The notes beneath the pieces are model-generated. The model did no database searches and was not told where the DNA came from. It saw only the letters and a list, made by a program, of their open reading frames with translations. 64,000 bases of DNA from Bacteroidales bacterium (lineage in GTDB: Bacteria > Bacteroidota > Bacteroidia > Bacteroidales > JAGOPY01), in NCBI GenBank assembly GCA_023229505.1, contig JALNZD010000001.1, positions 66,823 through 130,822 on the forward strand. The letters run 5' to 3'. The position numbers and the translations under genes were made by a program. Positions 2,769 to 64,000 of this stretch are shown here, piece by piece. The first letter of the stretch is position 1; every line of letters starts with the position of its first letter.

Positions 2769-3713
2769 TTGATGTACCCCTGGGGACATCAACGCCGCTT
2801 TAACTCCTATGCCGAATATTTCAAAAAGCAATTCGGCGGAAGAGTACAAAAATTAGCTATTGACGCCGGGTTTACCTGTCCTAACCGTGATGGGTCCAAG
2901 GGCTTGGGAGGATGCACCTATTGCGATAACGATGCTTTCAATCCCTCCTATTGCCATCCTGAAAAATCAATCCTCACGCAAATTGAAGAAGGAATTGAAT
3001 TCCATGCAAGGAGATACCGACGGGCTTCCCTTTTCCTTGCTTATTTCCAGCCTTATTCCAATACCTATGCCCCGCTGGAAAAACTGAAAGAGATTTACTC
3101 ACAGGCACTGTCTTTCCCGGAGATAATCGGCTTGGTTATCGGTACCCGGCCTGATTGTATTGACGGGGAGAAACTTGAATATTTCCGGAACCTTTCTGAG
3201 TCTCAATATATCATGCTGGAATACGGCATTGAATCGTGCTATAACCGAACCCTGAAAAGGATTAACAGGGGCCATACCTTTGAGGATTCCATCGCTGCAC
3301 TCGGGATGACATCTCAATATGGTATAAAAACCGGTGTTCACCTGATCTTCGGGCTTCCGGGGGAAACAAGGGATGAAATGATGAAAGAAGCTGAGATATT
3401 ATCGGCTTTGAATATCAATAACATTAAATTTCACCAGTTACAAATTATTAAAGGTACCAGGATGGCTGAAGAGTTTAAAATGATGCCTGAAGGTTTTATC
3501 CGGTTTTCCCTGGATGATTACATTGAATTCATTATTGATTTTGTTGAAAAGCTAAATCCGGCTTTCGTAATAGAAAGATTTGCAGGTGAAGTCCCGCCCC
3601 GTTTCCTGGCAGGACCTGGCTGGGGTTTGATCCGCAATGATCAGATCCTGGTTAAGATCGAAAAAAGGATGGAAGAAAGAGGAACTTGGCAAGGTAAGAG
3701 GTTTAAGATTTAA
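2769..3713 (+). CDS. TIGR01212-family radical SAM protein
   Basis: The N-terminus YPWGHQRRFNSYAEYFKKQFGGRVQKLAIDAGFTCPNRDG...GGCTYCDN matches the TIGR01212 (YtqA/YhcC-like) radical SAM pattern. 314 aa. Confidence 0.85.
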   Translation: MMYPWGHQRRFNSYAEYFKKQFGGRVQKLAIDAGFTCPNRDGSKGLGGCTYCDNDAFNPSYCHPEKSILTQIEEGIEFHARRYRRASLFLAYFQPYSNTYAPLEKLKEIYSQALSFPEIIGLVIGTRPDCIDGEKLEYFRNLSESQYIMLEYGIESCYNRTLKRINRGHTFEDSIAALGMTSQYGIKTGVHLIFGLPGETRDEMMKEAEILSALNINNIKFHQLQIIKGTRMAEEFKMMPEGFIRFSLDDYIEFIIDFVEKLNPAFVIERFAGEVPPRFLAGPGWGLIRNDQILVKIEKRMEERGTWQGKRFKI

Positions 3714-3757
3714 GGTTTAAGTTGAGGATTTGAAACTTGAAATTTGAAATTTTTTAC
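3691..3757 (+). repeat. heptanucleotide array straddling the stop codon of the TIGR01212 gene
   Basis: 7-nt phase: aaggtaa gaggttt aagattt aaggttt aagttga ggatttg aaacttg aaatttg aaatttt. Stops at TAA 3711 (frame 0), TAA 3718 (frame +1) and TGA 3731 (frame +2). Ends in a T-run at 3750..3755. Confidence 0.7.
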
Positions 3758-3828: not shown

Positions 3829-6800
3829 ATGAGAAAACTATTACTCTTTGTAGCAGCAATGCTAATCTCGTGGGCTGCATTCCCTCAGGCTATCGCGTAC
3901 TTTGACAATTTCGAGTCATATACGGCAGGACAATACCTGGCAGTGCAGTCCGATTATTGGACAACCTGGAGTAACCTCCCGGGCTCTTCTGAAGATGGAT
4001 ATGTCAGCACTGAAGAGGCCCTGAGCGGTGTAAATTCAGTGAAAGTGGCAGGTACTACAGACCTGTTAAAAGTAATTGGCGACAAGGTTTCCGGAAAATG
4101 GAAGGTCGAAGTGAACATGTATGTCCCGACCGGTTTTGGCGGGTATTATAACCTGCAGAAATTCTCCTCTCCGGGAGTGGAATGGGGCGTTCAGGCTTAT
4201 TTCGGCGAGGATGGCAACGGTACGATCGATGCCGGTGCAGAAGGCGCGGGTGTTTTTACATTTTCCCATGATACCTGGATCAATATCGTTAATATTGTCG
4301 ACCTTGACAATGACTGGGCAGAAGTTTGGATCGACGGTGTCCAGATCGTTGCCTGGCCATGGAGCCTCGGTACGTTCGGGGATCCCGGCGCCATACAGCT
4401 TGGTGGTATGAATATGTATGCCGGTGCACCCTCAGGTGACGTTTCAACCTATTATTTTGATGATGTAAAGGTGGAACAACTGATCTCTTCCTTCTATTAT
4501 GATGATTTCGAATCGTATGATGTTAACAGTTTCATTGCAGTTGAAAACCCGACCTGGTGGACAACCTGGTCAAACCTGCCCGGATCAGGCGAGGATGGAC
4601 AGATCGTCGAAACCTATGCCAGCAGCCCGACAAAATCAGTTGTCCTTGATGAAGTTCCCGGTGCATCCGATCTTATCCTCAAGTTGGGAGATAAGACCTC
4701 AGGGGCTTATGAAGTGAATTTCGATTTCTATGTTGAGACAGGAAAATGCGGATATTTTAACATCCAGCATTTCGAATCACCTGGTATTGAATGGGCCTAT
4801 GAAGTTTATTTAAGAACAAACGGTACCGGAAAACTTTATGCCGGCAGCACGACCGCTATCACCTTTACTTATCCCAAAGATACCTGGTTCCAGGTTGTTA
4901 ACCGCATTAATATCGATGGCGATATGGCTTATTTATATGTGGATGGTGTGCTGGTGCATTCCTGGCCATTCCACTATCAGGGAACCAGTACGAGTGGAAC
5001 CAACCAGCTTGGCGGGGTAGACTTTTATGCCGGGGCTGAAAGCGGAAGCGGAGAAACGCCAAGGGCTTATTTTGATAACCTGGAGTTCAAACCCATTCCG
5101 GCCGAATTATATGCTGATGATTTTGAATCCTATAATATTGGAGAATTCATGGCTGTGGTTAATCCAATATGGTGGACTACCTGGTCAAATCTGCCTGGTT
5201 CAGGCGAAGATGGCGAGATTGTGGATGATTATGCCAACAGCCCGACAAAATCAGTTGTCCTTGATGAAGTTCCGGGAGCCTCTGACCTCATCCTCAAACT
5301 GGGCGACCGGATCTCCGGTTCTTACGCATTGAACTGGATGGCATATGTGGAAACCGGATATGCCGGATATTTTAACATACAGCATTTCCAGTCCCCCGGA
5401 ATTGAATGGGCCTATGAAGTTTACTTCGATGAAGATGGCACCGGCAGGTTGTTTGCCGGCAGTACAACTCCATTCACTTTTGATTATCCTAAAGACACCT
5501 GGTTCTCAGTGGAAAACAATATCAACATCGATGAAGACTGGGTAACACTGACCATCGACGGGGTGATCATTTATTCCTGGCCATTCCATTTCCTATCTGA
5601 CGGTACAGCCGGGACTAATCAACTGGGTGGAGTTGACTTTTATGCTGGAGCCGCCACAGGCGAAACTCCCAAGTCATATTTCGATGACATAGAGTTCCTG
5701 CAGATTTCCGGAGAACTGGATCCGGTCATTGCAGTTGATCCTACAAGCATTGCAGCCACTGCACCAGCGGGCGGTGTTGACGAAACAACGCTTAACATCA
5801 CTAATGAAGGGGCGGCAGATCTGGAATACCAGGTCAGTGTGATCTATGAAGTCGCAGTACAACGGACTGATGTCATCAGTCTTGAAGGTCAGTCCAGCCC
5901 GGTCAGGACACTGGGCTACAGCGAGGTCAGTGTCGATCCGGATGCCCGCCCTGCGTCATATAACCCCCCACCGACAGATGATTTCGTACTGCATTATGAT
6001 GGTGATAATTCCAATGCAATTGGATGGGGTTCAGCGCCCATCTCCCCCATTGTTGCAGCCATGTTCCCCACTAACCTTACTTTGCCCCATGCAGGGATGA
6101 AGATCAGTACGGTTGATGTTTACATTAACGATCCGGGTACCAATTTCGTTCTTAAAATTTATGATATGGGTACGAGTTATCAGCCCGGGACCTTGCTGGT
6201 TTCGCAACCATTTGCAGGACAGAGCCTCAGCTGGAATACCATTAACTTAGCCACCCCGGTCAATATCACCGGTGCTGATATCTGGGTAGGTTATCAGTTC
6301 ACGCAACCCGATACTGGAATTTATATTCCAGGCGTCGATGCTGGTCCTAACGATCCTAACGGCGATTTCATTTCCACCGGTGTAGGCTGGTCGCATCTTT
6401 CCAACAATCCTGCTCTGCCATATAACTGGAATATCCGTGCTAACCTGACCGGAACCCCGATTGAGCAATGGCTCTCCGTTGCTCCTGCCTCCGGCCTGAT
6501 CACCCCGGGCAACACGGATCCGCTTACGGTTACCTGTGATGCTTCCGGCCTGGATGTCGGTACCTACACGGCTACTTTGCGTGTTTTAAGCAATGACCCG
6601 GAAAATTCGCAAATTGACGTCCCGGTGACATTCGAAGTAACTGAAGGAGGTACGCCGGTGTCAGTTATCCTTGACTTTGAGGAACAGGCTGACTGGGATA
6701 TGACCTTCAATCTCTGGTCAGTTGTGGATGTTGACGGTTCCAGCACTTTCCCTATCCCGGACGTTACCTTCCCGCACAGCCAGGAGCCTATGGCATTTAT

Positions 6801-7715: not shown

Positions 7716-8582
7716 CTATTGATGTAAAGTTCCGGCATTAATTACGGGTGCGGCATCCTTGTCTGAACAAAGCACGACCATCAGGTTACTGACCATGGCA
7801 GCTTTTTTATCCTCATCAAAATCGATAATATTCTTTTTTGAGAGCTGCTCTAATGCCATCTCAACCATACTGACAGCGCCTTCGACAATTTTAAAACGTG
7901 CGGCCACAATGGCTGTTGCCTGCTGTCTGCGCAACATGGCGCCGGCAATTTCGGCGGAGTAAGCCAGGTAACTTATCCTTGCCTCGATGATGTGAATTCC
8001 TGCAATTGACAGACGTTCCCTGAGCTCGTTCTCGAGAACATGATTAACTTCTTCTCCCCCGGAACGCAGGCTGATCTCGGCCTGGGCATCATCGAAGTTA
8101 TCATAAGGATAATGCCCTGCTAATTTTCTTATAGCGGATTCGCTCTGGATTTCAACAAAATGACTATAATCATCGACCTCGAAAGCAGCCTTAAAAGTAT
8201 TTTCGACCTTCCAGACCATTACAATCCCGATCATGATAGGATTTCCAACCTTATCATTCACTTTGATCGGTTCGCTGTCGAGGTTCCTGGCCCTGAGCGA
8301 AATCTTCTTTTTAACAAAGAAAGGATTGGCCCAGAAGAACCCATTCACTTTGATTGTGCCGGTATAATCACCGAACAACACCAGGACCATAGATTCATTG
8401 GGATTGACCACCATGAATCCAGGCATCAGAAAGACAGGAATAGCAATGAACGCGAAAATCCAGTCCTTATCCAGCGAAAAAGCCAGTGCAAATATTGCAC
8501 CGAGAAGAATAAAAATGATGGCCAGGAATAGATAGCCACTTTTTGGTGAAAAATTGTTCTCTTTTTCCATTTTAATATTCAT
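7716..8582 (-). CDS. SPFH/band-7 domain membrane protein
   Basis: N-terminal TM helices followed by an SPFH-like core (LDSEPIKVNDKVGNPIMIGIVMVWKV..., AIRKLAGHYPYD, AEIAGAMLRRQQA). The ORF opens with TTG at 8606; the ATG at 8582 or 8570 is a more likely start. Confidence 0.85.
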   Translation of the reverse strand: MNIKMEKENNFSPKSGYLFLAIIFILLGAIFALAFSLDKDWIFAFIAIPVFLMPGFMVVNPNESMVLVLFGDYTGTIKVNGFFWANPFFVKKKISLRARNLDSEPIKVNDKVGNPIMIGIVMVWKVENTFKAAFEVDDYSHFVEIQSESAIRKLAGHYPYDNFDDAQAEISLRSGGEEVNHVLENELRERLSIAGIHIIEARISYLAYSAEIAGAMLRRQQATAIVAARFKIVEGAVSMVEMALEQLSKKNIIDFDEDKKAAMVSNLMVVLCSDKDAAPVINAGTLHQ

Positions 8583-20374: not shown

Positions 20375-22423
20375 ATGGCAGAGGAGAATTTTAATTCACA
20401 GGATAAAGGGGGGAGTAATTTACCAAAAGGTAAAAATACCAGGGCTAAATTCAGTTTCTACTGGATTTATGCCGGTTTACTTTTAGTTTTTATGCTGACT
20501 TATATTGTCAACTGGGAAGGAGGGGCAGCTAAAAAGACTACCTGGGGCGAAGTGAAGGAGATGCTGGAAAATGGTGATATCAGCCGCATCCTTCTGGTCA
20601 ACAAGGAATCGGCAGAAATTTTCCTTAAGCCGGAAAAGATTGATGATCCCAGGTACAAGGAAATAAAAGAGAAGGTCCCTGCCAAAGGGCCTCATTTCAC
20701 GTACAACATCACTTCTCCTGAAAGTTTTGAGAGGCTGGTGATGGAAGCCCAGAAGGACATTGCTGATCCGGTATATATTGAGAACGATGTAAGGCGCAAC
20801 TGGACCGGAGATATTCTGGGATGGGTTGTTCCTGTTGCCATCCTGGTCATTGTCTGGCTGGTTATCATGAGGATGATGAGCCGCAATGCCGGTGGTGCCG
20901 GAGGTCAGATCTTCAACATCGGTAAATCGAAAGCACAATTATTTGATAAGACCACCAGTGTAAGCATTAATTTTAATGATGTGGCAGGGCTTGAGGAAGC
21001 CAAGGTGGAGGTTAAAGAAGTGGTGGATTTTTTAAAGAACCCTTCAAAATATACGGGATTGGGTGGTAAAATTCCCAAGGGAGTCCTTTTGGTAGGTCCT
21101 CCGGGAACCGGAAAGACCTTGCTGGCAAAAGCCGTTGCGGGTGAGGCCCAGGTTCCGTTCTTTTCCCTTTCAGGCTCCGATTTTGTGGAAATGTTTGTGG
21201 GTGTGGGCGCTTCGAGGGTCAGGGACCTTTTTAAGCAAGCTAAAGAAAAAGCCCCCTGCATTGTATTCATCGATGAAATTGATGCCATCGGGCGTGCCAG
21301 GGGAAAGAACCAGATCACCGGCGCCAATGATGAGCGGGAAAGCACGCTGAACCAACTGCTCACCGAGATGGATGGTTTCAGCACTAACTCCGGGGTCATC
21401 ATCATGGCGGCGACAAACCGGGCCGATATCCTTGACAGGGCATTGCTCCGTGCCGGCCGCTTCGATCGTCAGATCAACGTAGAACTACCCGATCTCGAAG
21501 AACGAAGGGCAATTTTCAAAGTGCACACCAAGAACCTGAAATACGACAAGGAAAATGTCGACATGGAATGGCTGGCCAGGCAGACACCCGGTTTTTCCGG
21601 CGCAGACATTGCTAATGTTGCTAATGAATCGGCCCTGATAGCCGCCAGAAACGACAAGAAAATCATCGAAAAGCAGGATTTTGTGGATGCCATCGACCGG
21701 ATTATCGGTGGACTGGAACGACGAAGCAAGATTATTTCACAGGAGGAAAAGCAGGTGATCGCATTCCACGAATCCGGGCATGCATCGGTCAGCTGGTTGC
21801 TGCCGCACGCGCATCCATTAGTCAAAGTGACCATTGTCCCCCGCGGAAAAGCATTGGGCGCAGCGTGGTACCTGCCTGAAGAGAGGCAGCTCACGACTTT
21901 CGAACAGATGTTTGATGAAATGACCGCTACATTAGGCGGCAGGGCAGCGGAAGAGATCATATTCGGGAAGGTTTCAACCGGAGCCCTGAATGACCTGGAA
22001 AGGGTAACCAAACAGGCTTACAATATGGTCGTATTCTTCGGACTGAACGATAAGATCGGCAATATCAGCTATTATGATTCCACGGGGCAGCAGGAATATG
22101 CATTCCAAAAGCCTTACAGTGAAAAAACAGCGGAAGTTATTGACCATGAAATTGGAAAACTGGTCGACCAGGCCTATCGCAGAGCCGTGGAAATCCTTAG
22201 AATTAACAGGGACAAACTCGAGCATCTGGCCCGAATGCTGCTCGAAAAAGAAGTGATATTCGGCGAAGACCTGGAGCCCATCTTCGGGAAAAAGATGAAG
22301 CAGGCGGGGCATGAGATCGTTTTGATCAATATCAAATCAAACGGGAATAATACCATGTCTGAAAAAGCCGAAGATAAAACTCCAAAGAAAAGGGGCAGGA
22401 AGCCGAAGGCAGACAGAGTATAG
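20375..22423 (+). CDS. ftsH: ATP-dependent zinc metalloprotease FtsH
   Basis: [18 protein letters not shown] Walker [10 protein letters not shown] Walker B, SRH region [19 protein letters not shown], zinc site HESGHA. Confidence 0.97.
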
Positions 22424-22495
22424 TCGTCAGTCGTTAGTCGTTAGTGGTTGGTCATTAGGTAGTCAGAAGGTTGTCAGAAGGTAGTCATTAAGAAT
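22421..22495 (+). repeat. 7-nt then 11-nt tandem array starting at the ftsH stop codon
   Basis: tagtcgt cagtcgt tagtcgt tagtggt tggtcat taggtag, then gtagtcagaag gttgtcagaag gtagtcattaag. The core GGTCATTAGGTAGTCA (22450..22465) is the inverted partner (15/16) of 25771..25786. Confidence 0.65.
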
Positions 22496-25725: not shown

Positions 25726-25756
25726 TTGCAATTGAACAATCGAGCAATTGAACAAT

Positions 25757-25801
25757 GTATGACCACTTTATGACCACCTAATGACCACTTTCTGACCATT
25801 T
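25757..25801 (+). repeat. four 11-nt tandem units (tATGACCACtt)
   Basis: tatgaccactt tatgaccacct aatgaccactt tctgaccattt. It is the reverse complement of the array at 22450..22495. It is preceded by the direct repeat GCAATTGAACAAT x2 (about 25727..25756). Confidence 0.65.
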
Positions 25802-34190: not shown

Positions 34191-34320
34191 AGTTGTTAGT
34201 TTAGGTTTTAAGGTTTTAGGTTTAAGGGTTAAGTTTAGGACTTTTTTACTGTCTGTAAATCAAATATTTATATAAATTTCCAGAACTTAAACCTTAACCC
34301 TTAAACCTCAACACTTAAAT
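34191..34320. repeat. pair of inverted heptanucleotide arrays (TAAGGTT-type)
   Basis: Left arm 34191..34239 (agttgtt agtttag gttttaa ggtttta ggtttaa gggttaa gtttagg). Right arm 34286..34320 (cttaaac cttaacc cttaaac ctcaaca cttaaat). A 14-bp perfect complement joins 34220..34233 and 34293..34306. The right arm begins at the aldehyde dehydrogenase stop. Confidence 0.75.
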
Positions 34321-37282: not shown

Positions 37283-37681
37283 ATGATCATAGAGCGATTC
37301 CCTCACAAGTTTGACTGGACCTTTATCGACCAGTTATATGCGCTATACACACATTCATGGCTGAAAGATCCTGTCTATGAAAATATTAATAAGACCATGC
37401 AGGTCGGCCCCTGGTACGGAGATATCATCAATAGGGCAGCACTGAGACATATTTCTCTGGAAGAAGCCCTTATTGAAGAGGGAAAATTCCTTTTTTACCG
37501 GAATGATACGGTGAATTATCTGATCAATTATGGCCAGGATCATTTCAGCCGGATTATTTCAGACAATCCCGTCTGGATGGAACACGTCAGGGGAAAAGCG
37601 ATACAAAAGGGAATTCCGCTGAAAGAGATGATAAGGTTGGATGCGGAGTATATGTGGGAGCAGAAACTTAAGAAGTTTTGA
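37283..37681 (+). CDS. hypothetical protein (or the 3-prime fragment of a larger decayed gene)
   Basis: This is the distal part of ORF 37103..37681, from the internal ATG (MIIERFPHKFDW...). No recognised family. Coding status is uncertain. Confidence 0.3.
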   Translation: MIIERFPHKFDWTFIDQLYALYTHSWLKDPVYENINKTMQVGPWYGDIINRAALRHISLEEALIEEGKFLFYRNDTVNYLINYGQDHFSRIISDNPVWMEHVRGKAIQKGIPLKEMIRLDAEYMWEQKLKKF

Positions 37682-37719
37682 GTGTTAAGTGTTGAGTGTT
37701 AAGTTGGGGACTTTTTTAT
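37679..37719 (+). repeat. heptanucleotide stop-codon array plus a T-run tail
   Basis: TGAGTGT TAAGTGT TGAGTGT TAAGTTG starts at the stop codon, giving stops in frames 0, +1, +2 and 0 at 37679, 37686, 37693 and 37700. It is followed by GGGGACTTTTTTAT. Confidence 0.75.
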
Positions 37720-48334: not shown

Positions 48335-48500
48335 TTCAGGGTGCAATTCGACCTTCATGTTCCATTTTGCATTTTTCATGTTGTATTTTTCATTTGTTGA
48401 GTATTTCATAAATCGTTGGGGTCATTGAAGTGTAATCAGAAGACCTATTTCTTAATTTCAAATTCAATCATTTTTTGTAATTTTATTAAAAATTAGGAAG

Positions 48501-56958: not shown

Positions 56959-58551
56959 TTAATTACGATATAAGCAACATTCAGGCAGATTGTTGTAAAC
57001 TTCATCACTGGCCTTAAACTTTTCTGTATCATGCCCGGCTTGAGCTATGGCCATATGGATGGTGTTAAGATCAGCCAAGGCGTTATCGTATTCCACATGG
57101 ATTTTTTTAGTTTTAACGTCCCAATCAGCAGATGAGACTCCCTGAACAGATTTGGCGGCTTTCTCAATACGTTCCTTGCACATATCGCAGTTGCCTGAAA
57201 CGCCAAACATGGCATGCTGAAAGGTCTGAGTTGAGGTATTCCCTGCAGAAACATTATTTAGGTTTTTATTTAACTCTGGAGCAGCAGGCATATTCATTCC
57301 CGGCATGGTGGATGTTTGTCCGCCCTGACGGTTCATCATGCTGGGCTTACCTTCCAACTGTGCGGCGGCATCAACGCTGAATACGCCCTGCGTGACAATT
57401 TCCTCCCCTTCATTCAATCCATTCATCACTACATAGCTGCTTCCCAACATGGGACCGACTTCTATCTCGCGCATTTTAAACACCGGCTCATCAGTTTCCG
57501 TTTGTTTCACATATACAACAGAGCGTTTGCCCGTCCATAATACCGCAGTGCCGGGAATGATTAAATTGTCATTGTATTGATTGAGGTTTGCCTCAACAAG
57601 GCCGGTTGCAAACATTTCGGGCTTTAATTTTCCGGCCTGGTTGTTGATTTCTACCCGGACTTTTGCGACGCGGGTAACGGGATCGAGCACCGGATCAATA
57701 AAGGAAATATTGTCTGAAAAATTGACTCCAGGCATAGCCTGAACAGTGAAAGTAAGATGATCACCTTTTGCCAGAAAAGGAAGGTCGCTTTCATAGGCAT
57801 CGAACATCACCCATACATGCGAAAGATCTGCCACATCAAATAGTACCGTGCCGGGGGAAATATAATCGCCATTATTGACCCTTCTTGCAGTAACAATACC
57901 GGTTGTATTGGCATATACTTCAAAATCAGATTTGGCAATGCCTGAGCTCTCAATGCCGGCAATCTGATTATCGGTCAGTTTCCACTGGCGAAGTTTATCT
58001 TTTGCTGCCTCATAAAGGATAGGTTGCGATGATTTTGTTTTGGCTGTTTCAAGCAGTTCCTGCTGGGCTGTTATCAAATCGGGTGAATATATTACGGCCA
58101 GCTTTTGTCCTTTTCCGACTGTTTCACCTGTATAGTTTACAAACAATTTTTCAATACGGCCTGGCAGATAAGACACCTGGCTTTGTAACATTCGTTCATC
58201 CGCCTGTACTTTGCCATATAGACGTACTTCTTTTACAGGTTTTTGTCTAGATACTGTTGATGTCAGGACGTTAGCCAACTGAGCAGCTTCCTTGCTCAGG
58301 TGAATGGCATCAGGGTCTGTGGAGGTATTGCTTTGATTGAGTGGAATTAAATCCATGCCACAGATAGGGCATTTGCCCGGTTCGTGCATTCGTATCTGCG
58401 GGTGCATGGCGCAAGTCCAAATCGTGCTTTTAACAGTTTCAACCGTGAGGTCTTGCTTTTCTTCTTTTTGATCCGGGGAATGGAAAAATAACCAACCGAG
58501 AAAAATACCTATTATCAAGGTGATGATATAAAATATTTTTTTTCTTTTCAT
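56959..58551 (-). CDS. cusB: RND efflux periplasmic adaptor (CusB-like) with N-terminal Cys/His metal-binding and C-terminal HMA-like domains
   Basis: MKRKKIFY... TM anchor, CAMHPQIRMHEPGKCPICGMDL, an MFP barrel-sandwich core, and a C-terminal GNCDMCKERIEKAAKSV...CC. The ORF-track extension 58552..58650 is a translation of repeat DNA. Confidence 0.87.
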   Translation of the reverse strand: MKRKKIFYIITLIIGIFLGWLFFHSPDQKEEKQDLTVETVKSTIWTCAMHPQIRMHEPGKCPICGMDLIPLNQSNTSTDPDAIHLSKEAAQLANVLTSTVSRQKPVKEVRLYGKVQADERMLQSQVSYLPGRIEKLFVNYTGETVGKGQKLAVIYSPDLITAQQELLETAKTKSSQPILYEAAKDKLRQWKLTDNQIAGIESSGIAKSDFEVYANTTGIVTARRVNNGDYISPGTVLFDVADLSHVWVMFDAYESDLPFLAKGDHLTFTVQAMPGVNFSDNISFIDPVLDPVTRVAKVRVEINNQAGKLKPEMFATGLVEANLNQYNDNLIIPGTAVLWTGKRSVVYVKQTETDEPVFKMREIEVGPMLGSSYVVMNGLNEGEEIVTQGVFSVDAAAQLEGKPSMMNRQGGQTSTMPGMNMPAAPELNKNLNNVSAGNTSTQTFQHAMFGVSGNCDMCKERIEKAAKSVQGVSSADWDVKTKKIHVEYDNALADLNTIHMAIAQAGHDTEKFKASDEVYNNLPECCLYRN

Positions 58552-58570
58552 AAATTTTATTTTAAAAGAT

Positions 58571-58723
58571 ATAAATAGAAATATAATGGAAATACAATGG
58601 AAATACAATGGAAATATAATGGAAATAAAGCATAAATACAATAGAATCATATTTCCAAGTTTTCAACGTATTTCCATGTATTTCAACATATTTCCATGTA
58701 TTTCAATGTATTTCAAAATTTCC
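58571..58723. repeat. inverted pair of decamer/undecamer arrays filling the cusC-cusB spacer
   Basis: 58571..58640 reads (AATGGAAATAC)n with an 11-nt phase. 58651..58723 reads (TTTCnAnnTA)n with an exact 10-nt phase and the opposite orientation. The last five cusC codons (NFEIH) lie in the array. Confidence 0.8.
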
Positions 58724-60166
58724 TAATCTTTTGAGCCATGCAATGGAAGTGTTGAAATCGGCAATAGCTTCTATTTGCTTGTATTCGTAATCGAGGGTTT
58801 GCTGGCGAATGCGTAAAATATCAGTGAGATCTGAACCGGACGATGCATAACTTTTAAGCATAATATCGAGCGATCTCAAAGCTAGCTGATATTGTTCAGC
58901 ATAGAGTTTTGTACGGCGCTGAGCATCCTGGTATAATTGCATGGCCTGATAATACTCCGTTTGCAATGAATTAGCCGTTGCTTTGTAATATTGTTTATTA
59001 GTCGATTTCAAAAAGTCGGCTTCGGTTTGCATAGCTTTATATTTTTTGCGGTAAATGGGTAAAGTAGCCGTTACCATCGGCATAATCATATCTTTTCCAT
59101 TCATTGAGGAAGTGGACATATCACTTTTACTGATAATCGAATAATTTAAACCTAAACCGAACATAGGATAGCCCATGCGTGTAACCATTTTTTTACGGGC
59201 TTCGAGCGATTGCTGCTCATATTGAATCATCCCCAGCATCGGATTGTTACTTAAAATACTATCCGATACAGCAATCATCGACGGTAAAAAGTTTTCGGCA
59301 ATTAAAGTATCAGGCAGCGAAACCGGCGAATCAGGTGGCCTGTTCAGATAGCTGTTAAATTCGGCAACAGTGGTATTCCATTGGTTTTTTAACAGTTCTA
59401 TATTGTTCAGAAGGTCACCGATTTCAATTTGGATCCTATACACATCAGAAAGCCCTGAACTACCGGAAGATGAACCCATTGAGTTGTCCTGCATTGTTGA
59501 TGCTGCCTGATTTGAAACAGACCCGGCAGTATTGCCCGAAATTCCTCCCATACTTTGCATACCGGAGGATCCGGAAGTAGCACTTTGAGTGGAAGCCGGG
59601 GACATTCTCCTGTTAGGTGTTGCGGTGCCATTCCCTGTCGGAGCGGCTTTGAACCTGACGATGGCCAATCTTTCAATCGTGCGAAGAATCTCGATATTTT
59701 TCTCCGAAATGCGGATATTCTGTTTAACTTTATGCAAATCGTACCATTTGCGTTGTACATCATAAAAGACCTGCAATTTGGCATCGCGAAATGATCCGTA
59801 TTTTGCTTTTGCCATCAGGCTCATTTCATCCTTAGCCGATTTTATCACACCGAACCATGGGAACATTTGCATCAGCCTTATATCAGCCACCTGGTTACCA
59901 CCAATAAGTTCCATGGGGCTGAGGAAGACTCCGAGACTAAAGTCAGGATCGGGTAAGCTGCCAACCTGCGGTACCTTTTGCAAAGCTGCCTCATATTCAA
60001 AATATCGCTGAAGTACTGTTGGGTTGTTTTGAGCAGCAATTTCAAGATAGTTCAGCAATGAGTCGGTTTGGGAATATGCTGATATACATAGAAATAAATA
60101 GAAATACATGGAAATACATGCAATGATATAATTCGTGGAGAATTTGAATTTATTGTTGTTTTTCAT
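58703..60166 (-). CDS. cusC: TolC-family outer membrane efflux protein (CusC-like)
   Basis: 487 aa. TolC-type repeats (LLNYLEIAAQNNPTVL..., IADFNTSIAWLKRL). Contains a Ser/Gly/Met-rich low-complexity insert. Confidence 0.87.
   Translation of the reverse strand: MKNNNKFKFSTNYIIACISMYFYLFLCISAYSQTDSLLNYLEIAAQNNPTVLQRYFEYEAALQKVPQVGSLPDPDFSLGVFLSPMELIGGNQVADIRLMQMFPWFGVIKSAKDEMSLMAKAKYGSFRDAKLQVFYDVQRKWYDLHKVKQNIRISEKNIEILRTIERLAIVRFKAAPTGNGTATPNRRMSPASTQSATSGSSGMQSMGGISGNTAGSVSNQAASTMQDNSMGSSSGSSGLSDVYRIQIEIGDLLNNIELLKNQWNTTVAEFNSYLNRPPDSPVSLPDTLIAENFLPSMIAVSDSILSNNPMLGMIQYEQQSLEARKKMVTRMGYPMFGLGLNYSIISKSDMSTSSMNGKDMIMPMVTATLPIYRKKYKAMQTEADFLKSTNKQYYKATANSLQTEYYQAMQLYQDAQRRTKLYAEQYQLALRSLDIMLKSYASSGSDLTDILRIRQQTLDYEYKQIEAIADFNTSIAWLKRLGNFEIH
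60087..60120. repeat. decamer array (GAAATAnATn x3) inside the cusC signal-peptide coding region
   Basis: cata gaaataaata gaaatacatg gaaatacatg. 60091..60107 is the perfect reverse complement of 60581..60597 and of 60611..60627. Confidence 0.75.
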
Positions 60167-60560
60167 CTTTGGTCAGTTTGATGAAATTGTTTAATCTGAT
60201 TTGAAGATCTTTAGAAACAGTTTTATAATCATCAAAAATTTCTTGGGAGATTTTACCTCGTTCAAATAATAGCTCAAGCCAATGATCGGTGGCTTCAGAC
60301 TGGGATGCCCTCGCATTATAATAAAACCGAACCTTATGCAAATAATGAAATCGGCTATAACCTTCTGCGATGTTCGCTCCAATAGAATCGGTTGAACGGA
60401 TAAACTGATCACCAATGACTTTTTTTTCTTCAAAACTCATTTTTGAATAAATGTTCCAAGCAATAACTGAAAGTTTCCTGGCTAATTGATATACCTTCAA
60501 ATCCTTAACTTGTATGTAGTTTCTACTTCCATTTATTTCATTAATTTCATTTATTTCCAT
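60150..60560 (-). CDS. four-helix-bundle protein (23S rRNA intervening-sequence protein family, TIGR02436-like)
   Basis: 136 aa. DLKVYQLARKL..., STDSIGANIAEGYSRF and YYNARASQSEATDHWLELL match the family. The N-terminus MEINEINEIN is encoded by repeat DNA. The stop overlaps the cusC start by 17 nt. Confidence 0.85.
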   Translation of the reverse strand: MEINEINEINGSRNYIQVKDLKVYQLARKLSVIAWNIYSKMSFEEKKVIGDQFIRSTDSIGANIAEGYSRFHYLHKVRFYYNARASQSEATDHWLELLFERGKISQEIFDDYKTVSKDLQIRLNNFIKLTKDEKQQ

Positions 60561-60632
60561 GTATTTCTATGTATTTCAACGTATTTCTATTTATTTCTAA
60601 GTATTTCTATGTATTTCTATTTATTTCAATTT
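60529..60632. repeat. decamer array (GTATTTCTAT-type, about 10 units)
   Basis: Exact 10-nt phase from 60551 to 60630: ttatttccat gtatttctat gtatttcaac gtatttctat ttatttctaa gtatttctat gtatttctat ttatttcaat. It covers the whole cusA-4HB spacer, the 4HB start and the cusA stop. Confidence 0.82.
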
Positions 60633-63600
60633 CCTTTCCCTCCACATCGCCTGAAACAAAGGAACCACGAAGACTGTCATTACCTGGATAACCATACCAC
60701 CAAACATGGGTATTGCCATTGGGACCATAATATCAGCTCCTTTGCCGTTAGATGATAAGACAGGTAATAAAGCAATGACAGCAACGGCTGTGGTCATCAT
60801 AGCTGGCCTTACACGTTTCAGCCCGGCAGACACTACGGCTTCACGCACTTCATGAACAGTTGCAGGATGCCGCGCTTCAAATACCTGGTGAATATAAGTC
60901 CCCATGATTACGCCATCATTAGTGGCTATACCGAATAAAGCAATAAAACCAACCCAGACTGCCACGCTCAGATTTATCGTGTGCATCTGGAACATATCCC
61001 GCAGGTTTATGCCAGCAACGGAAAAATTAAGAAACCAACCCTGACCATATAACCAGAGCATGATAAATCCACCGGCAAATGCGACGAATACGCCGGAAAA
61101 ATGAATAAATGAGGCCGTAACAGTGCGGAATTGGAAGTACAACAATAACAATATCAATAATAAGCTTATGGGTATGACAATAGCCAGTCTTTTTGTAGCC
61201 CTCAGCTGATGTTCATAATTGCCAGCGAATTTATAAGACACTCCGGCAGGAAGGGTAAGAGATCCTGTATTCAGCTTCTGTTGGATTATTTTAGCTGCTT
61301 CTTCCACTACATCAACTTCTGCTTTTCCTTCTATCTTATCGAATATAACATATCCGACAAGGAAGGTGTTTTCACTCCGGATCATTTGAGCTCCGCGGGT
61401 GTAATCAATATCGGCGATTTCGCCCAAAGGAACCTGGACGCCATTCATTGCCGGGATCAGGATGCGTTTCAGGTCATCAGGATTATCGCGCAACTCACGG
61501 GCATAACGGACCCTGATTGGGAACCTTTCGCGGCCTTCGACCGATGTGGAAAGGCTCATGCCTCCGACAGCCACCTGCAGCACTTCCTGGACATCGCTGA
61601 TACTCATCCCATAACGGGCCATCGCTTCGCGATTGAGGTTGATTTCGAGGTAAGGCGCCCCTACGGCCCGGTCGTAGAACACGGATGATGCTTTGACTGA
61701 CGGCACATCTTTCAGCGCTTGCTCAAACTGCATACCAGCCAGCTCGATGGAGTTGAGATCGGGCCCGTAAACTTTTAAACCCATCGGGGCGCGCATACCG
61801 GTTGAAAGCATCACCAGCCGGGTCTCAATCGGTTGCAGCTTTGGAGCGGAAGTCAGACCAGGGATGTCAGTTACCTTGACTATTTCGTTCCAGATATCCA
61901 GAGGCTTTTTAATCTGCGGACGCCACTGGCGGAAATACTCTCCATTTTCATCTTTTATCAGAAAACTATCTATATTTTTCGAAATATATTGAAATACATT
62001 GAAATACGTTGAAATATTAGAATCCCGTATTTCAGATTTTATCCACTGACCTTTGACTAAAACTAAAAATGTTCCACTTTCTTTATTATACTTTATTTCC
62101 TCAATATTATCGACTGTAACTTTATTTCCATCTATTTCTATTGTATTTCCATCTATTTCTATTGTATTTCCATCTATTTCTATTGTATTTCCATCTATTT
62201 CTATTGTATTTCCATCTATTTCAACCGCATTTCTATTTATTTCTATTGTATTTCTGAATTCCGACAAGTTCAAAATAAAATTCACATTCTTATCTGCCTT
62301 AAACCTTTGTCTATGCCCATTTTCGTTAAGGATGTACTCAGGCCGGTAATTGATAGTATTCTCAAACATTTGCACCGGGGCCGGATCAAGGGCAGAATTA
62401 ACGCGGCCCCATTTACCCACGGCAATTTCGACTTCGGGAATAGCAGAAAGCCGTTTGTCGAGCGTTTCAATGTATTCAAGGTTCTTCTCAATGCTTGAAT
62501 GTGGCATACTGGTGGGCATGAGCAAGAAAGAACCTTCGTTTAATGAAGGCATAAACTCCTTGCCAATTCCCGGAAACGTCTTTACAGGAGCCTGCCAGAT
62601 TGCTGTTTGCCTGAAATTTTTCCAACCCACACTTTCTATACCTGATGCAACAAAACCGAATATTTTATCAAAACCCTGCCAGGCTAACAGACCAAAAAAT
62701 AAAGTGACTGCCGGTATGATCAGGAACTTACTTTTATGTGCCAACGCCCAACGAATAATATCTTCATAATAATGCACCATGGACATCAGGGCAGCAAGAA
62801 TCACAGCAATGATACCACTCACAAAAATGAAATTGATGAAAGTACTGTTATGAGCGCCTAGGGGAAGCCACTCAACTGAGAGATACCAGGCTGCTGCAAG
62901 CACGGTAATGGCAATGTTGATATAGTTAGGAAATTCTTTCCGGTATTCAGGCCAGCGGTAATCGAGCAAATTATTTATACCTACAGCAATTAAAGCCAAT
63001 GCCGGCCAGGTATGCCAGAAAATTATAAACGCTATCCCTGCTATGATAAGGCTTCCGTTCCACACCATTCGGATTTTCTTTTTATCAAAGCGGATATTGA
63101 AGAATATATGCACCAGTGTTGGCAAAACCACGATTCCGAGGATAAATGCAGCGATCAGGGCGAAGGTTTTCGTAAAAGCCAGGGGGTGAAATAATTTACC
63201 TTCGGCGGCCTGCATGGCAAAAACGGGCAGAAAGCTGACAATGGTAGTTGCAATGGAAGTAACCACCGCTGCACGCACTTCGGTAGTGGCCAGGTATATA
63301 ACCTGGAGCAATTTCTTCCCACGGATGCCTAAATTTTCGGGCATTTCCAAATGCCGGAGAATGTTCTCCACATCCACAATCCCAATGTCGACCATTACGC
63401 CAATGGCAATTGCAATACCCGATAAGGCAACGATATTGGCTTCGATGCCGAATAGTCGCATGAGGATGAAAGTCATTAATACGCCAATGGGCAGAAGGCC
63501 CGCTACAATGAGGGATGCTCTCAGGTTCATCACCAGGATAATAATCACAATAATACTGATAAGGATTTCATGCGATAGGGCATATTCAAGCGTTCCGATG

Positions 63601-64000
63601 GTTTCTTTAATCAGCCCGGTACGGTCGTAGAATGGAACAATCGTCACTTTGGAAACTGAACCATCGGGCAGGGTTTTTTGCGGCAAACCGGCTTCTATCT
63701 CTTTTATTTTATCTTTTACATTATTGATGACTTCCATGGGATTTGACCCAAAGCGGGCAACTACTACCGCGCCTACTGCTTCGGAACCCGACTTATCGAG
63801 TCCACCGCGGCGGGTAGCCGGTCCAAATGCAACGCGGGCAACATCTTTAATGCGCACCGGTACATTGTTTCTTACAGCTACGACAGAGATTTCAAGGTCT
63901 TCCAAATTCTTTACATAGCCTAAACCGCGGATAATGTATTCCACATTGTTAATTTCTATAGTTTCCGCACCGATGTCGAGGTTGCTTTTGCGCACGGCAT
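60621..64000 (-). CDS. cusA: CusA/CzcA-family heavy-metal RND efflux pump (5-prime end beyond the window)
   Basis: RND permease motifs throughout (GIAIAIGVMVDIGIV, MLSTGMRAPMGLKVYG, GIATNDGVIM). The frame is open through base 64000. The apparent start at 63995 is an internal GTG (..AVRKSNLDIGAETIE.. lies about 200 residues into CusA homologs). Confidence 0.93.
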   Translation of the reverse strand, partial: AVRKSNLDIGAETIEINNVEYIIRGLGYVKNLEDLEISVVAVRNNVPVRIKDVARVAFGPATRRGGLDKSGSEAVGAVVVARFGSNPMEVINNVKDKIKEIEAGLPQKTLPDGSVSKVTIVPFYDRTGLIKETIGTLEYALSHEILISIIVIIILVMNLRASLIVAGLLPIGVLMTFILMRLFGIEANIVALSGIAIAIGVMVDIGIVDVENILRHLEMPENLGIRGKKLLQVIYLATTEVRAAVVTSIATTIVSFLPVFAMQAAEGKLFHPLAFTKTFALIAAFILGIVVLPTLVHIFFNIRFDKKKIRMVWNGSLIIAGIAFIIFWHTWPALALIAVGINNLLDYRWPEYRKEFPNYINIAITVLAAAWYLSVEWLPLGAHNSTFINFIFVSGIIAVILAALMSMVHYYEDIIRWALAHKSKFLIIPAVTLFFGLLAWQGFDKIFGFVASGIESVGWKNFRQTAIWQAPVKTFPGIGKEFMPSLNEGSFLLMPTSMPHSSIEKNLEYIETLDKRLSAIPEVEIAVGKWGRVNSALDPAPVQMFENTINYRPEYILNENGHRQRFKADKNVNFILNLSEFRNTIEINRNAVEIDGNTIEIDGNTIEIDGNTIEIDGNTIEIDGNKVTVDNIEEIKYNKESGTFLVLVKGQWIKSEIRDSNISTYFNVFQYISKNIDSFLIKDENGEYFRQWRPQIKKPLDIWNEIVKVTDIPGLTSAPKLQPIETRLVMLSTGMRAPMGLKVYGPDLNSIELAGMQFEQALKDVPSVKASSVFYDRAVGAPYLEINLNREAMARYGMSISDVQEVLQVAVGGMSLSTSVEGRERFPIRVRYARELRDNPDDLKRILIPAMNGVQVPLGEIADIDYTRGAQMIRSENTFLVGYVIFDKIEGKAEVDVVEEAAKIIQQKLNTGSLTLPAGVSYKFAGNYEHQLRATKRLAIVIPISLLLILLLLYFQFRTVTASFIHFSGVFVAFAGGFIMLWLYGQGWFLNFSVAGINLRDMFQMHTINLSVAVWVGFIALFGIATNDGVIMGTYIHQVFEARHPATVHEVREAVVSAGLKRVRPAMMTTAVAVIALLPVLSSNGKGADIMVPMAIPMFGGMVIQVMTVFVVPLFQAMWRERKLK
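61981..62256. repeat. in-frame inverted decamer arrays inside cusA, including four perfect 21-nt tandem copies
   Basis: 61981..62020 reads gaaatatatt gaaatacatt gaaatacgtt gaaatattag. The array in 62091..62256 has the opposite orientation. ATCTATTTCTATTGTATTTCC is repeated perfectly four times (62130..62213), encoding GNTIEID x4 on the minus strand. Confidence 0.88.

Follow-up and report, generated by a model that had tools for sequence, protein, structure and literature searches.

What keeps a tandem-repeat palindrome in frame inside a metal-efflux pump: the peptide that it encodes, or the nucleic acid itself? The question is raised by a cusA-type gene from a Bacteroidales bacterium, which we analyzed in a 64,000-nucleotide stretch of contig JALNZD010000001.1 (the window). 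The gene product matches the RND family PF00873 (ACR_tran; E 6e-129, Pfam), and a phmmer search against the PDB returned E. coli CusA (3ne5/3k07, E ~2e-184) as its closest solved relative, followed by weaker matches to ZneA (7e-112) and multidrug pumps (1e-30 to 1e-44). The periplasmic Cu(I)/Ag(I) site of CusA consists of M573, M623 and M672 plus E625 (PMC8092243), and the window pump has the same residue at each of the four positions. With its RND fold, this metal site, and a membrane-fusion protein and an outer-membrane factor encoded in the same operon, the pump is of the CusA type; its full length of 1352 aa was read from contig L002, which is 100% identical over 3886 nt. The gene and the segment in question are laid out as follows.

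60621..64000 (-): cusA-type HME-RND pump gene, 5′ end beyond the window edge (PF00873, PDB matches)
61938..62336 (-): segment without counterpart in E. coli CusA, 133 codons, residues 782-914, PC1 subdomain
62271..62336 (-): N-terminal 22 codons, YILNENGHRQRFKADKNVNFIL, common to the short form; opening beta-hairpin of the excursion typical of the lineage
62102..62256 (-): left arm, GAAATAnnnn units as 21-nt in-frame super-units (TRF, spacing, codon test)
62123..62222 (-): perfect period-21 tract, 4.76 units, 100 nt
62017..62101 (-): core between the arms, NIEEIKYNKESGTFLVLVKGQWIKSEIRDS, conserved in long forms
61977..62022 (-): right arm, nnnnTATTTC units spaced 10 nt apart (TRF; inverted-repeat pairs I5, I9, I13-I18)
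61938..61961 (-): C-terminal 8 codons, LIKDENGE, common to the short form (hhalign, short-form residues 43-50 to long-form 105-112)

The segment enters PC1 between native Q633 and E634 (E. coli CusA numbering), 8 residues past M623 and E625, two conserved ligands of Cu(I). In the phmmer alignment, query residues 704-781 correspond to 3ne5_A 563-640 and residues 917 onward to 641 onward, which bears out the E. coli flanks that a preliminary description of the locus had given. That description's translation was likewise confirmed: the minus strand reads ...NTINYRPE|YILNENG..., continues through the left arm as NTIEINRNAVEID(GNTIEID)4GNKVTVD and through the right arm as ISTYFNVFQYIS, and rejoins the pump at ...KDENGE|YFRQWRPQI. 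The 21-mer ATCTATTTCTATTGTATTTCC, reported there as four copies without a mismatch, starts exactly at 62130, 62151, 62172 and 62193, within a TRF call of 6.3 copies at period 21 (62123-62254). The opposed arm, also reported, was recovered as 3.6 copies of GAAATACATT at 61981-62016; its three in-frame units span 30 nt and are the reverse complement of the left arm. At 27% GC, the 399-nt segment is free of stop codons in the cusA frame, each of the other five frames has 2-20, and none of 10,000 shuffled versions was stop-free.

The same decamer recurs elsewhere in the operon as opposed arrays, as the preliminary description had stated, at 58567-58646/58650-58716 (Site A) and 60084-60119/60527-60632 (Site B).

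60527..60632 (-): Site B left arm, ~11 GAAATAnnnn units, overlapping both the final cusA codons and the opening codons of the PF05635 gene
60150..60560 (-): PF05635 gene (23S rRNA intervening sequence / four-helix-bundle protein; Pfam E 9e-23)
60084..60119 (-): Site B right arm, 3.6 nnnnTATTTC units, within the OEP gene at its 5′ end, coding for part of the hydrophobic N-terminus
58703-60166: OEP gene, outer-membrane factor (PF02321, Pfam)
58650..58716 (-): Site A left arm, 6.8 units reading GAAATAnnnn with transcription, where the OEP gene ends (3′)
58567..58646 (-): Site A right arm, TATTTC-type with an 11-nt period, abutting the left arm upstream of cusB
56959-58650: CusB-like membrane-fusion protein gene (HlyD_D23, HMBD, HMA; Pfam)

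Arm order is identical at all three sites, GAAATA-type first and TATTTC-type second. Between the OEP gene and cusB, the arms of Site A fold into a hairpin (z -4.2), and the Site B arms, which bracket the PF05635 gene after cusA, pair in the RNA fold (z -3.4). Searching the window for (TATTTC N4)x3 with up to two mismatches gave 16 matches, all between 58.6 and 62.0 kb and against 0.01 expected; the array motif was not found elsewhere in the 64 kb. No Rfam family and no rRNA was matched anywhere in the window, and a promoter and terminator scan found no enrichment.

Codon-level analysis indicates which of the two, peptide or DNA, dictates the other. Inside cusA, all 51 of 51 consecutive GAAATA spacings were 10+11 or 11+10, that is, 21 nt; downstream of the gene, 10+10 was the commonest pair (39/99). 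The dipeptide EI is written GAAATA in 55 of 77 instances (71%) in long inserts versus 55 of 292 (19%) elsewhere in cusA. Read in frame, the motif yields E-I from GAA-ATA, G-N-T from GGA-AAT-AC and Y-F from TAT-TTC: the peptide is dictated by the DNA motif. Coding DNA keeps only those packings that preserve the frame, namely steps of 21 nt (10+11, left arm) and 30 nt (3 x 10, right arm) and, at the N-terminus of the PF05635 protein, 9 nt, the length to which the Site B unit shrinks there (MEINEINEIN). Across 21 species, the two in-gene arms form a stronger duplex than shuffled arms (-21.7 versus -13.1 kcal/mol, p 2e-6). The in-gene RNA as a whole folded no better than its shuffles (z -1.06), and arms from the same locus paired no better with each other than with arms from other species (p 0.1); there is thus no sign of selection for pairing inside cusA.

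Near-identical genomes reveal how the arrays change. Over the first 7 kb, locus L085 differs from the window by no substitution and by a single event, a 63-nt (3 x 21) deletion in the array; L086 carries 2 substitutions, the same deletion of three units (62160-62222), and a further 9-nt unit difference in the array-encoded N-terminus of the PF05635 gene. Among homologues, P0073 and P0092 are free of substitutions and differ by one heptad, ISTVSPR, in the right arm, and P0007 and P0011 differ by one heptad, GNTIEIN, plus 14 substitutions. These differences were taken from short-read metagenome assemblies, not reads; the 1352-aa form of the pump occurs on two contigs and a 1331-aa form on two others. 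Because unit number changes between near-identical genomes, loop length varies by strain while the pump ORF stays intact, and the recent expansion and in-frame slippage proposed in the preliminary description find support in the L085/L086 deletion. Separately, identity between L085 and L084 steps from ~0.90 upstream to ~0.84 downstream, only a hint of cassette exchange.

The insertion itself is neither private to this genome nor recent in it. A 50-residue excursion at the same site, the short form, is common to Bacteroidota CusA, and hhalign matched its residues 1-22 to long-form residues 1-22 with 98.9% probability. The long form carries a cassette of left arm, beta-hairpin core (consensus I-x-E-[IV]-x-[YF]-[DN]-K-...-F-x-V-L) and right arm, which is present in 61 of 121 aligned pumps (the window pump and its 120 closest relatives) and in ~32 species-level genome loci, spanning dozens of Bacteroidia species. 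The count of 133 extra codons therefore holds relative to E. coli, and against Bacteroidota CusA with the 50-residue segment it falls to ~83. Some 30 of the 133 codons are non-repeat and lineage-typical, and the rest are long-form cassette. Arms range from 2 to 20 units, and inserts from 98 to 147 aa in close homologues and up to ~190 aa in L083 and L005; the open frame is kept in every long-form genome locus translated (~32). Distant long forms keep an insert of ~100 aa and have lost the nucleotide arrays, which shows that arrays can decay. Long and short forms are interleaved on the pump tree, with at least 19 switches. The short form is not a simple deletion of the long form, as 19 of its residues have no counterpart there, and L084 rules out the generalization that short-form loci never have arrays.

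Beyond the operon, arrays were absent from ~1.1 Mb of flanks around 77 related genome loci. They are not specific to cus, as a metagenome pattern scan recovered the same GAAATA/TATTTC hairpins at unrelated intergenic sites (pgl/zwf, T2SS E/F, ogt, a permease and others), with no PF05635 gene beside these identical arrays. A search of 1.84 billion protein representatives with the insert found no second host protein for the cassette; of the matches examined, one was a CusA fragment and the others were repeat proteins with generic, beta-roll-like heptads. Neither the arrays nor array-bracketed PF05635 genes are described anywhere in the full-text literature searched.

We consider the cassette to be, more likely than not, a REP/RPE-like tandem-array palindrome that is held at the nucleic-acid level, is tolerated in a surface loop of CusA, and evolves by slippage. 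The element is a palindrome whose arms consist of tandem ~10-nt units, GAAATAnnnn followed by the complementary nnnnTATTTC, and it occupies three places in the cus operon: the OEP-cusB hairpin, the surroundings of the PF05635 gene, and, in frame, the beta-hairpin excursion of PC1. Unit number would change through replication slippage, with the peptide mostly a passenger, presumably tolerated because it lies in a surface loop and because the heptad (xIxIDGN) follows a strand-turn pattern. Gene conversion or shared constraint may keep the arrays at the three sites alike, and any action of the intergenic copies would be that of a hairpin in RNA or DNA. Covariation of the unit between sites, seen in the Cytophagales locus L068 with another decamer at all three, also speaks for this reading. 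Confinement to the operon in the 77 loci is odd for a purely selfish dispersed repeat. No transposase was seen among the operon genes scanned, no target-site duplication at the long/short boundary, and no terminal inverted repeats.

Several known systems offer partial precedents. Rickettsia palindromic elements (RPEs; Ogata et al. 2000) are, as reviewed in PMC10969869, ~100-150 bp long, fixed in length and present in many unrelated genes per genome. The cusA palindrome resembles them in being also intergenic, in lying in frame within a housekeeping or transport gene whose ORF remains intact and functional, and in encoding a fold-compatible peptide. Unlike RPEs, its arms are tandem 10-nt arrays of variable copy number, all coding hosts seen belong to one operon (cusA, in its loop and at its 3′ end, the PF05635 gene at its N-terminus, and OEP in its signal region), and the cassette is dimorphic across lineages. 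REP/BIME, BOX, ERIC, Correia-type repeats and MITEs are short, dispersed intergenic hairpin repeats, BOX with a tandem module, and occasionally have in-frame intragenic copies (PMC10969869). Short hairpin-forming intergenic repeats inside the operon fit this description, whereas the cus arrays show no RayT-like or IS transposase, terminal inverted repeats or target-site duplications, each arm is nothing but a tandem array whose period, 10-11 nt, is that of the helical repeat, and in the related loci they are restricted to the operon. PARCELs and the palindromes of Nematomorpha likewise have coding dyad symmetry with both arms translated, and PARCELs also vary in repeat number, with a patchy distribution that suggests exchange. 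PARCEL units, however, are 25-residue domains in ORFs of unknown function and the Nematomorpha palindromes are long, perfect and mitochondrial, whereas cusA has a 7-residue unit in one defined loop of a well-known pump, with units that are also non-coding.

A further parallel is with those intervening sequences of 23S rRNA (Leptospira and Coxiella type) that carry a PF05635 ORF and are excised by RNase III. As in these, stem-forming inverted repeats bracket the PF05635 gene at Site B and in two other loci (L068 and L069); in contrast to them, Site B is part of a protein-coding operon, where it separates cusA from the OEP gene, and its arms are tandem arrays. Contingency loci share tandem repeats whose copy number differs among near-identical strains, most simply through slippage, but all changes here are multiples of 3 nt (63, 21 and 9), there is no on/off frameshifting, and the product is periplasmic rather than surface-exposed. 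A phase-variable locus is ruled out, since changes of 9, 21 and 63 nt leave all translated long-form ORFs intact. So is a diversity-generating retroelement (DGR), which would have a reverse transcriptase and a template/variable repeat pair differing at adenines, as the neighbors are pump genes only and the changes are whole-unit indels, not A-to-N substitutions. The insert is not an intein either, a class defined by splicing-junction residues and Hint-domain motifs: Pfam, run on the insert alone, matched nothing but DUF5666, below threshold and through the heptad repeats, and the junctions are E|Y and E|Y.

The alternative that survives best, although we hold it to be rather unlikely, makes the arrays cis-acting sites of an operon-level system, in which stems of the polycistronic RNA, or structured DNA, would be processed or bound so as to tune the relative expression of cusA, the OEP gene and cusB. 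The agent may be the co-encoded PF05635 protein, which is related to the DGR protein Avd and to ORFs found within intervening sequences of 23S rRNA, and the in-gene copy would be kept as part of the system. Consistent with this, the PF05635 gene was present in 9/22 long-form versus 0/32 short-form loci (p 9e-5) and arrays downstream of cusA in 11/22 versus 2/32 (p 6e-4), though both associations are uncorrected for shared ancestry. PF05635 orthologues are 75-90% identical, conserved about as well as the pump. In the Cytophagales locus L068 a different decamer (GGATAT../..ATATCC) occupies the in-gene, PF05635-flanking and third sites in the same left-then-right order, and in L069 a distant PF05635-like gene sits within a third kind of inverted array. 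The intergenic stems (z -3.4 to -4.2) and the operon confinement point the same way. Against it, L014, L019, L021 and L084 keep arrays without a nearby PF05635 gene, the identical arrays at unrelated intergenic sites carry none, and the fold inside cusA is insignificant.

An unlikely but more far-reaching version is that arrays and PF05635 gene form an undescribed operon-resident system, in which a putative four-helix-bundle factor, akin to Avd and the IVS proteins, recognizes a lineage-specific decamer of its own (GAAATA-type here, GGATAT-type in Cytophagales) in paired inverted arrays of one transcript, pump coding sequence included, and keeps the arrays homogeneous. Exchange of the long cassette from one lineage to another may also be driven by this factor, and the at least 19 long/short switches without linkage to the flanks would then be explained.

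It is also possible, but we think quite improbable, that the cassette is a selected protein feature, a beta-roll-like stalk and hairpin on PC1 with the DNA palindrome as by-product, whose contingency-like length variation would adjust how open the cleft is or how CusB, CusF or other periplasmic partners dock. The intact ORFs, the proximity to M623 and E625, and the persistence of both alleles together across the tree are in keeping with such a role. The core evolves ~7 times faster than its flanks (pN/pS 0.59 versus 0.08-0.09), which speaks against this reading, and constraint on the peptide appears relaxed there; yet core motif and layout are conserved across many species and pN/pS is below 1, so some constraint on the peptide remains. 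Similar to the heptads are the generic xIxIDGx repeats of unrelated proteins, which match PF21300 (antifreeze beta roll). AlphaFold2 (AF2) models were poor overall (mean pLDDT 57 for a 451-aa periplasmic slice and 46 for the 1125-aa window protein), built on an alignment of 80-90% identical homologues that was too shallow, and the insert's secondary structure was the one feature on which the runs agreed. Within them, the core formed three beta-strands at pLDDT 63-84 and each heptad a 4-residue strand in both runs, but the heptads reached a confidence of only 40-52. Moreover, GAAATA is fixed at the codon level, the identical motif occurs in non-coding arrays, and no protein-level need explains why the right arm should be the reverse complement of the left. 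The ancestral state is the short form, which evidently suffices in most Bacteroidota.

An assembly artefact or decaying pseudogene is very hard to credit: tandem repeats are error-prone in short-read metagenome assemblies, and many PF05635-bearing contigs are short, as breaks at arrays would produce, but each length form recurs on two contigs, the perfect tract is just 100 nt, homologous cassettes with intact frames occur in dozens of independent assemblies and species, and the metal-binding residues and operon are intact.

In-frame selfish or structural DNA repeats in essential proteins are known mainly from Rickettsia. Read as a tolerated palindrome, cusA would add a second and mechanistically different case, in which a tandem-decamer palindrome slips in codon-compatible steps within a structurally well-understood transporter, 8 residues from its metal-binding site, and nature supplies alleles of 0, 2 and 5 or more repeats for comparison. 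Annotators should be aware that the length variation of Bacteroidia CusA/SilA and the contig breaks nearby are repeat-driven. The locus also ties a widespread family without assigned function, the "four helix bundle / 23S rRNA IVS protein", to a recurrent layout in which inverted tandem arrays, their unit covarying from site to site, bracket the gene, and this architecture offers a testable lead to what PF05635 proteins do. If the arrays and the PF05635 gene did constitute a system of their own, it would provide the first function for these proteins outside DGRs and would connect the intervening sequences of rRNA with a broader class of elements bracketed by stems.

On the minus strand, 60621 to the edge of the window codes for the 1125 C-terminal residues of an RND pump (Pfam match ACR_tran), whose full 1352 residues are supplied by a metagenome contig, L002, with 100% identity over 3886 nt. 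The best solved relatives are the E. coli CusA structures (E about 2e-184); in the alignment to 3ne5_A, query residues 704-781 correspond to chain residues 563-640 and query residue 917 onward to chain residue 641 onward. The known M573, M623 and M672 appear in the chain as M580, M630 and M679, an offset of 7 from native numbering, and the alignment break combined with this offset therefore places the extra segment between native Q633 and E634. The Cu(I) site of CusA is formed by M573, M623, E625 and M672 (PMC8092243), and all four residues are conserved in the aligned window pump. Next in the operon after cusA come a PF05635 gene, an OEP gene, the gene of a CusB-like protein carrying HMBD and HMA domains, and one for a small HMA protein. 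E. coli CusA also lacks a second segment of the window pump (residues 578-703; 62571-62948, minus strand), which lies between chain residues 560 and 563; its ~125, mostly hydrophobic residues occur in all close homologues and probably form extra transmembrane helices between TM6 and TM7.

The preliminary description had reported a repeat-derived in-frame segment in cusA with four exact copies of a 21-nt unit, an opposed arm and a decamer shared with the operon's intergenic arrays, and each of these features was recovered. In the direction of transcription, GAAATAnnnn units (left arm) precede nnnnTATTTC units (right arm) at all three sites:

62123-62222, in cusA: perfect period-21 tract with the four exact copies (6.3 copies by TRF on the left arm)
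61981-62016, in cusA: opposite arm, GAAATACATT x3.6
60527-60632 and 60084-60119, site B: opposed arrays around the PF05635 gene
60150-60560, minus strand: PF05635 (23S rRNA IVS protein / four-helix-bundle) gene, between cusA and the OEP gene, inside the inverted arrays of site B
58567-58646 and 58650-58716, site A: opposed arrays between the OEP and cusB genes

A window scan for the three-unit pattern returned 16 matches where 0.01 would be expected, every one of them within this operon. At site A the arms abut each other (hairpin z -4.2), at site B the 411-nt PF05635 gene separates them (z -3.4), and the in-cusA arms, ~100 nt apart, showed no significant folding relative to shuffles (z -1.06). 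The 27% GC segment is free of stops in the cusA frame only, and 0 of 10,000 shuffles were stop-free. We consider it probable that the cassette is a REP/RPE-like palindrome built of tandem decamers, which a surface excursion of PC1 tolerates in frame and which is kept similar to its intergenic copies. In the OEP gene (58703-60166, minus strand), the TATTTC arm of site B encodes a hydrophobic, signal-peptide-like N-terminal region (...IIACISMYFYLFLCISAYS...), and the repeat therefore supplies coding sequence to a second gene.

The main rival, to which we assign a clearly lower probability, gives the arrays a function as cis-elements of the operon, perhaps together with the PF05635 protein. Across genome loci with enough downstream sequence, and with raw p values that ignore kinship, arrays follow cusA at 11/22 loci with the long, cassette-bearing form of the pump versus 2/32 with the short form (p 6e-4), and the PF05635 gene is present at 9/22 versus 0/32 (p 9e-5); none of 77 loci carried arrays outside the operon. 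L084, the orthologous locus of a relative (85-90% nucleotide identity), is an exception, being short-form but retaining arrays both at the 5′ end of the OEP gene and between OEP and cusB:

L084 8700-8890 and 10240-10385: cusA ends ...WRERAVTRKNQLNNFIKLTKDENDQKI*, its 3′ end fused in frame to the last ~20 PF05635 codons; right arm and OEP-cusB arrays retained

The fusion resembles the outcome of a deletion that took out the left arm and most of the PF05635 gene, and the right arm and OEP-cusB hairpin arrays are still present. A Cytophagales locus, L068, uses another decamer (GGATAT.. / ..ATATCC) within cusA, on both sides of its PF05635 gene and at a third site, in the same left-then-right order:

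L068 array sites: 4142-4276, 5782-5892, 6335-6382 and 7784-7915 (assembly uncertain at 5663-5760, an N run with duplicated flanks)

A further locus, L069, has a distant PF05635-like gene flanked by inverted arrays of yet another, third type. Pattern scanning of metagenome contigs also located GAAATA/TATTTC hairpin arrays in unrelated intergenic positions that lack a nearby PF05635 gene; their neighbours include pgl-zwf, T2SS E/F, a permease with an acyl-CoA ligase, ogt, NmrA and a radical-SAM gene.

We rate a selected, variable protein loop below the cis-element explanation in likelihood. Two AF2 runs, of low overall confidence, both gave a 4-residue strand per heptad (pLDDT 40-52), three core strands (63-84) and a helix in the right-arm peptide; the heptad is compatible with a strand-turn repeat. 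A search of the insert against 1.84 billion representatives yielded a CusA fragment, plus unrelated proteins whose xIxIDGx heptads are generic; several of those examined match the antifreeze beta-roll family. No second host protein for the cassette emerged.

The suggestion that slippage changes copy number in frame was supported by near-identical sequences. L085, a 197-kb ENA contig with the window's gene order and 0 substitutions in the first 7 kb, lacks 63 nt of the window array, exactly three 21-nt units, and L086 shares this deletion and carries a single additional 9-nt unit, GAAATAAAT, within the array for the PF05635 N-terminus. The 1352-aa and 1331-aa pumps are identical apart from the array difference. 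Homologous pumps P0073 and P0092 show 0 substitutions, a single right-arm ISTVSPR unit being their difference, and P0007 and P0011 differ by one GNTIEIN unit and 14 substitutions. The PF05635 N-terminus, MEINEINEIN, is itself array-encoded by a 9-nt unit, with (EIN)2, (EIN)3 and (EIN)4 variants among near-identical contigs; most orthologues begin MENKP..., without the EIN extension. Extreme or derived arrays in other species are all in frame:

L028 10335-10524 and L029 3324-3403: 54-nt super-unit, GKGETIDEQLKYGGNTVV x3-6
L083 10507-10807: right-arm unit of 42 nt, ISTASQSISTVFPS x about 8; largest right-arm count, 20
L005 10328-10501: largest left-arm count, 17

The main caveat is that copy-number differences were read from assemblies, not reads; an artefact is very unlikely.

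Among the 120 closest homologues (all 1269-1372 aa), two classes occur at the insert position. The short form has exactly 50 residues (...FKVDRDGSYILKNGSKYNLEKEGFRVIPADSLIPDKNGE), and the long form, 98-147 residues among close homologues, runs hairpin 1, (GNxxEIN)n, core (I-x-E-V-[KR]-[YF]-x-K-E-...-F-x-V-L-V-x-G-K-W), (IS-x-YFN-x-FQ)n and FLI-x-D-x-NGE. The short form is ancestral, since distant Bacteroidota carry it (Bacteroides, Tannerellaceae, Proteiniphilum, Prevotellaceae, Chitinophagaceae). By hhalign, the short form shares the first ~22 and the last 8 of the 133 codons that E. coli CusA lacks, the remainder being cassette. Scanning one genome per species identified ~32 long-form loci in Bacteroidia MAGs, including Lentimicrobiaceae, Prolixibacteraceae and Paludibacter, plus one Cytophagales MAG, all with intact ORFs. 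The idea of a recent insertion was not borne out: the cassette is old, widespread and dimorphic.

The two forms are interleaved on a neighbour-joining tree from which the insert was left out, with 21 changes by Fitch parsimony (19-24 over bootstraps) versus about 41 with random labels. In 93/121 cases a sequence and its nearest neighbour are of the same form, and cassette divergence follows host divergence for both forms (Spearman 0.56 and 0.43). Residues associated with form occur only within the cassette and at the very end of CusA, which overlaps the site B array; no linkage of form to flanking CusA residues was found. Identity between L085 and L084 is about 0.90 upstream of the cassette versus about 0.84 downstream. 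Cassette exchange by recombination would be the simplest reading of this dimorphism. Derivation of the short form from the long by one deletion was ruled out, 19 short-form residues lacking any counterpart. Because the short-form middle has a weak colinear profile match to the long-form core (E 0.03), the arms may enclose a host hairpin in the way that they enclose the PF05635 gene.

Other short-period arrays occur in the window. Opposed tandem arrays of a 7-nt unit, GTTTAAG / CTTAAAC (34199-34237 and 34286-34319), lie between two minus-strand genes, are 87% complementary over 30 nt (RNA fold z -3.7) and have the same architecture as the GAAATA arrays with a different unit. More tandem arrays (7-11 nt) are found at gene ends:

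3702-3752, 22421-22487, 25729-25798, 37673-37704 and 48354-48397

Several of these precede a GGACTTTTTTAC-like T-run, and 7-8-nt arrays sit at cusA 5′ or 3′ junctions in many related loci (e.g. L009 7784-7891, L021 7795-7878, L056 11710-11782). Mini-arrays between genes thus seem to be a recurrent trait in this group of genomes.

Full-text literature searches turned up no published description of this repeat cassette; its closest precedents are RPEs, BOX/REP elements, PARCELs and PF05635-bearing rRNA intervening sequences. EI is encoded as GAAATA at 55/77 positions in long inserts versus 55/292 elsewhere in cusA. Consecutive GAAATA spacings inside cusA are 10+11 or 11+10 in 51/51 cases, and 10+10 (39) and 11+11 (11) are common downstream. 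The right arm in cusA is packed as 3 x 10 nt, the PF05635 N-terminus as a 9-nt unit. Complementarity between the two in-cusA arms holds across 21 species (p 2e-6 versus shuffled arms), and in the same comparison an arm paired no better with its own partner than with arms of other species. The core between them has a pN/pS of 0.59 versus 0.08-0.09 in the flanks; it evolves much faster than the flanks yet not neutrally. Together, these patterns point to a repeat that is under nucleotide-level constraint and is filtered by reading frame. On the reading we favour, a REP/RPE-like palindrome would be tolerated in frame within the PC1 surface excursion, its in-gene arrays being kept similar to the intergenic copies.
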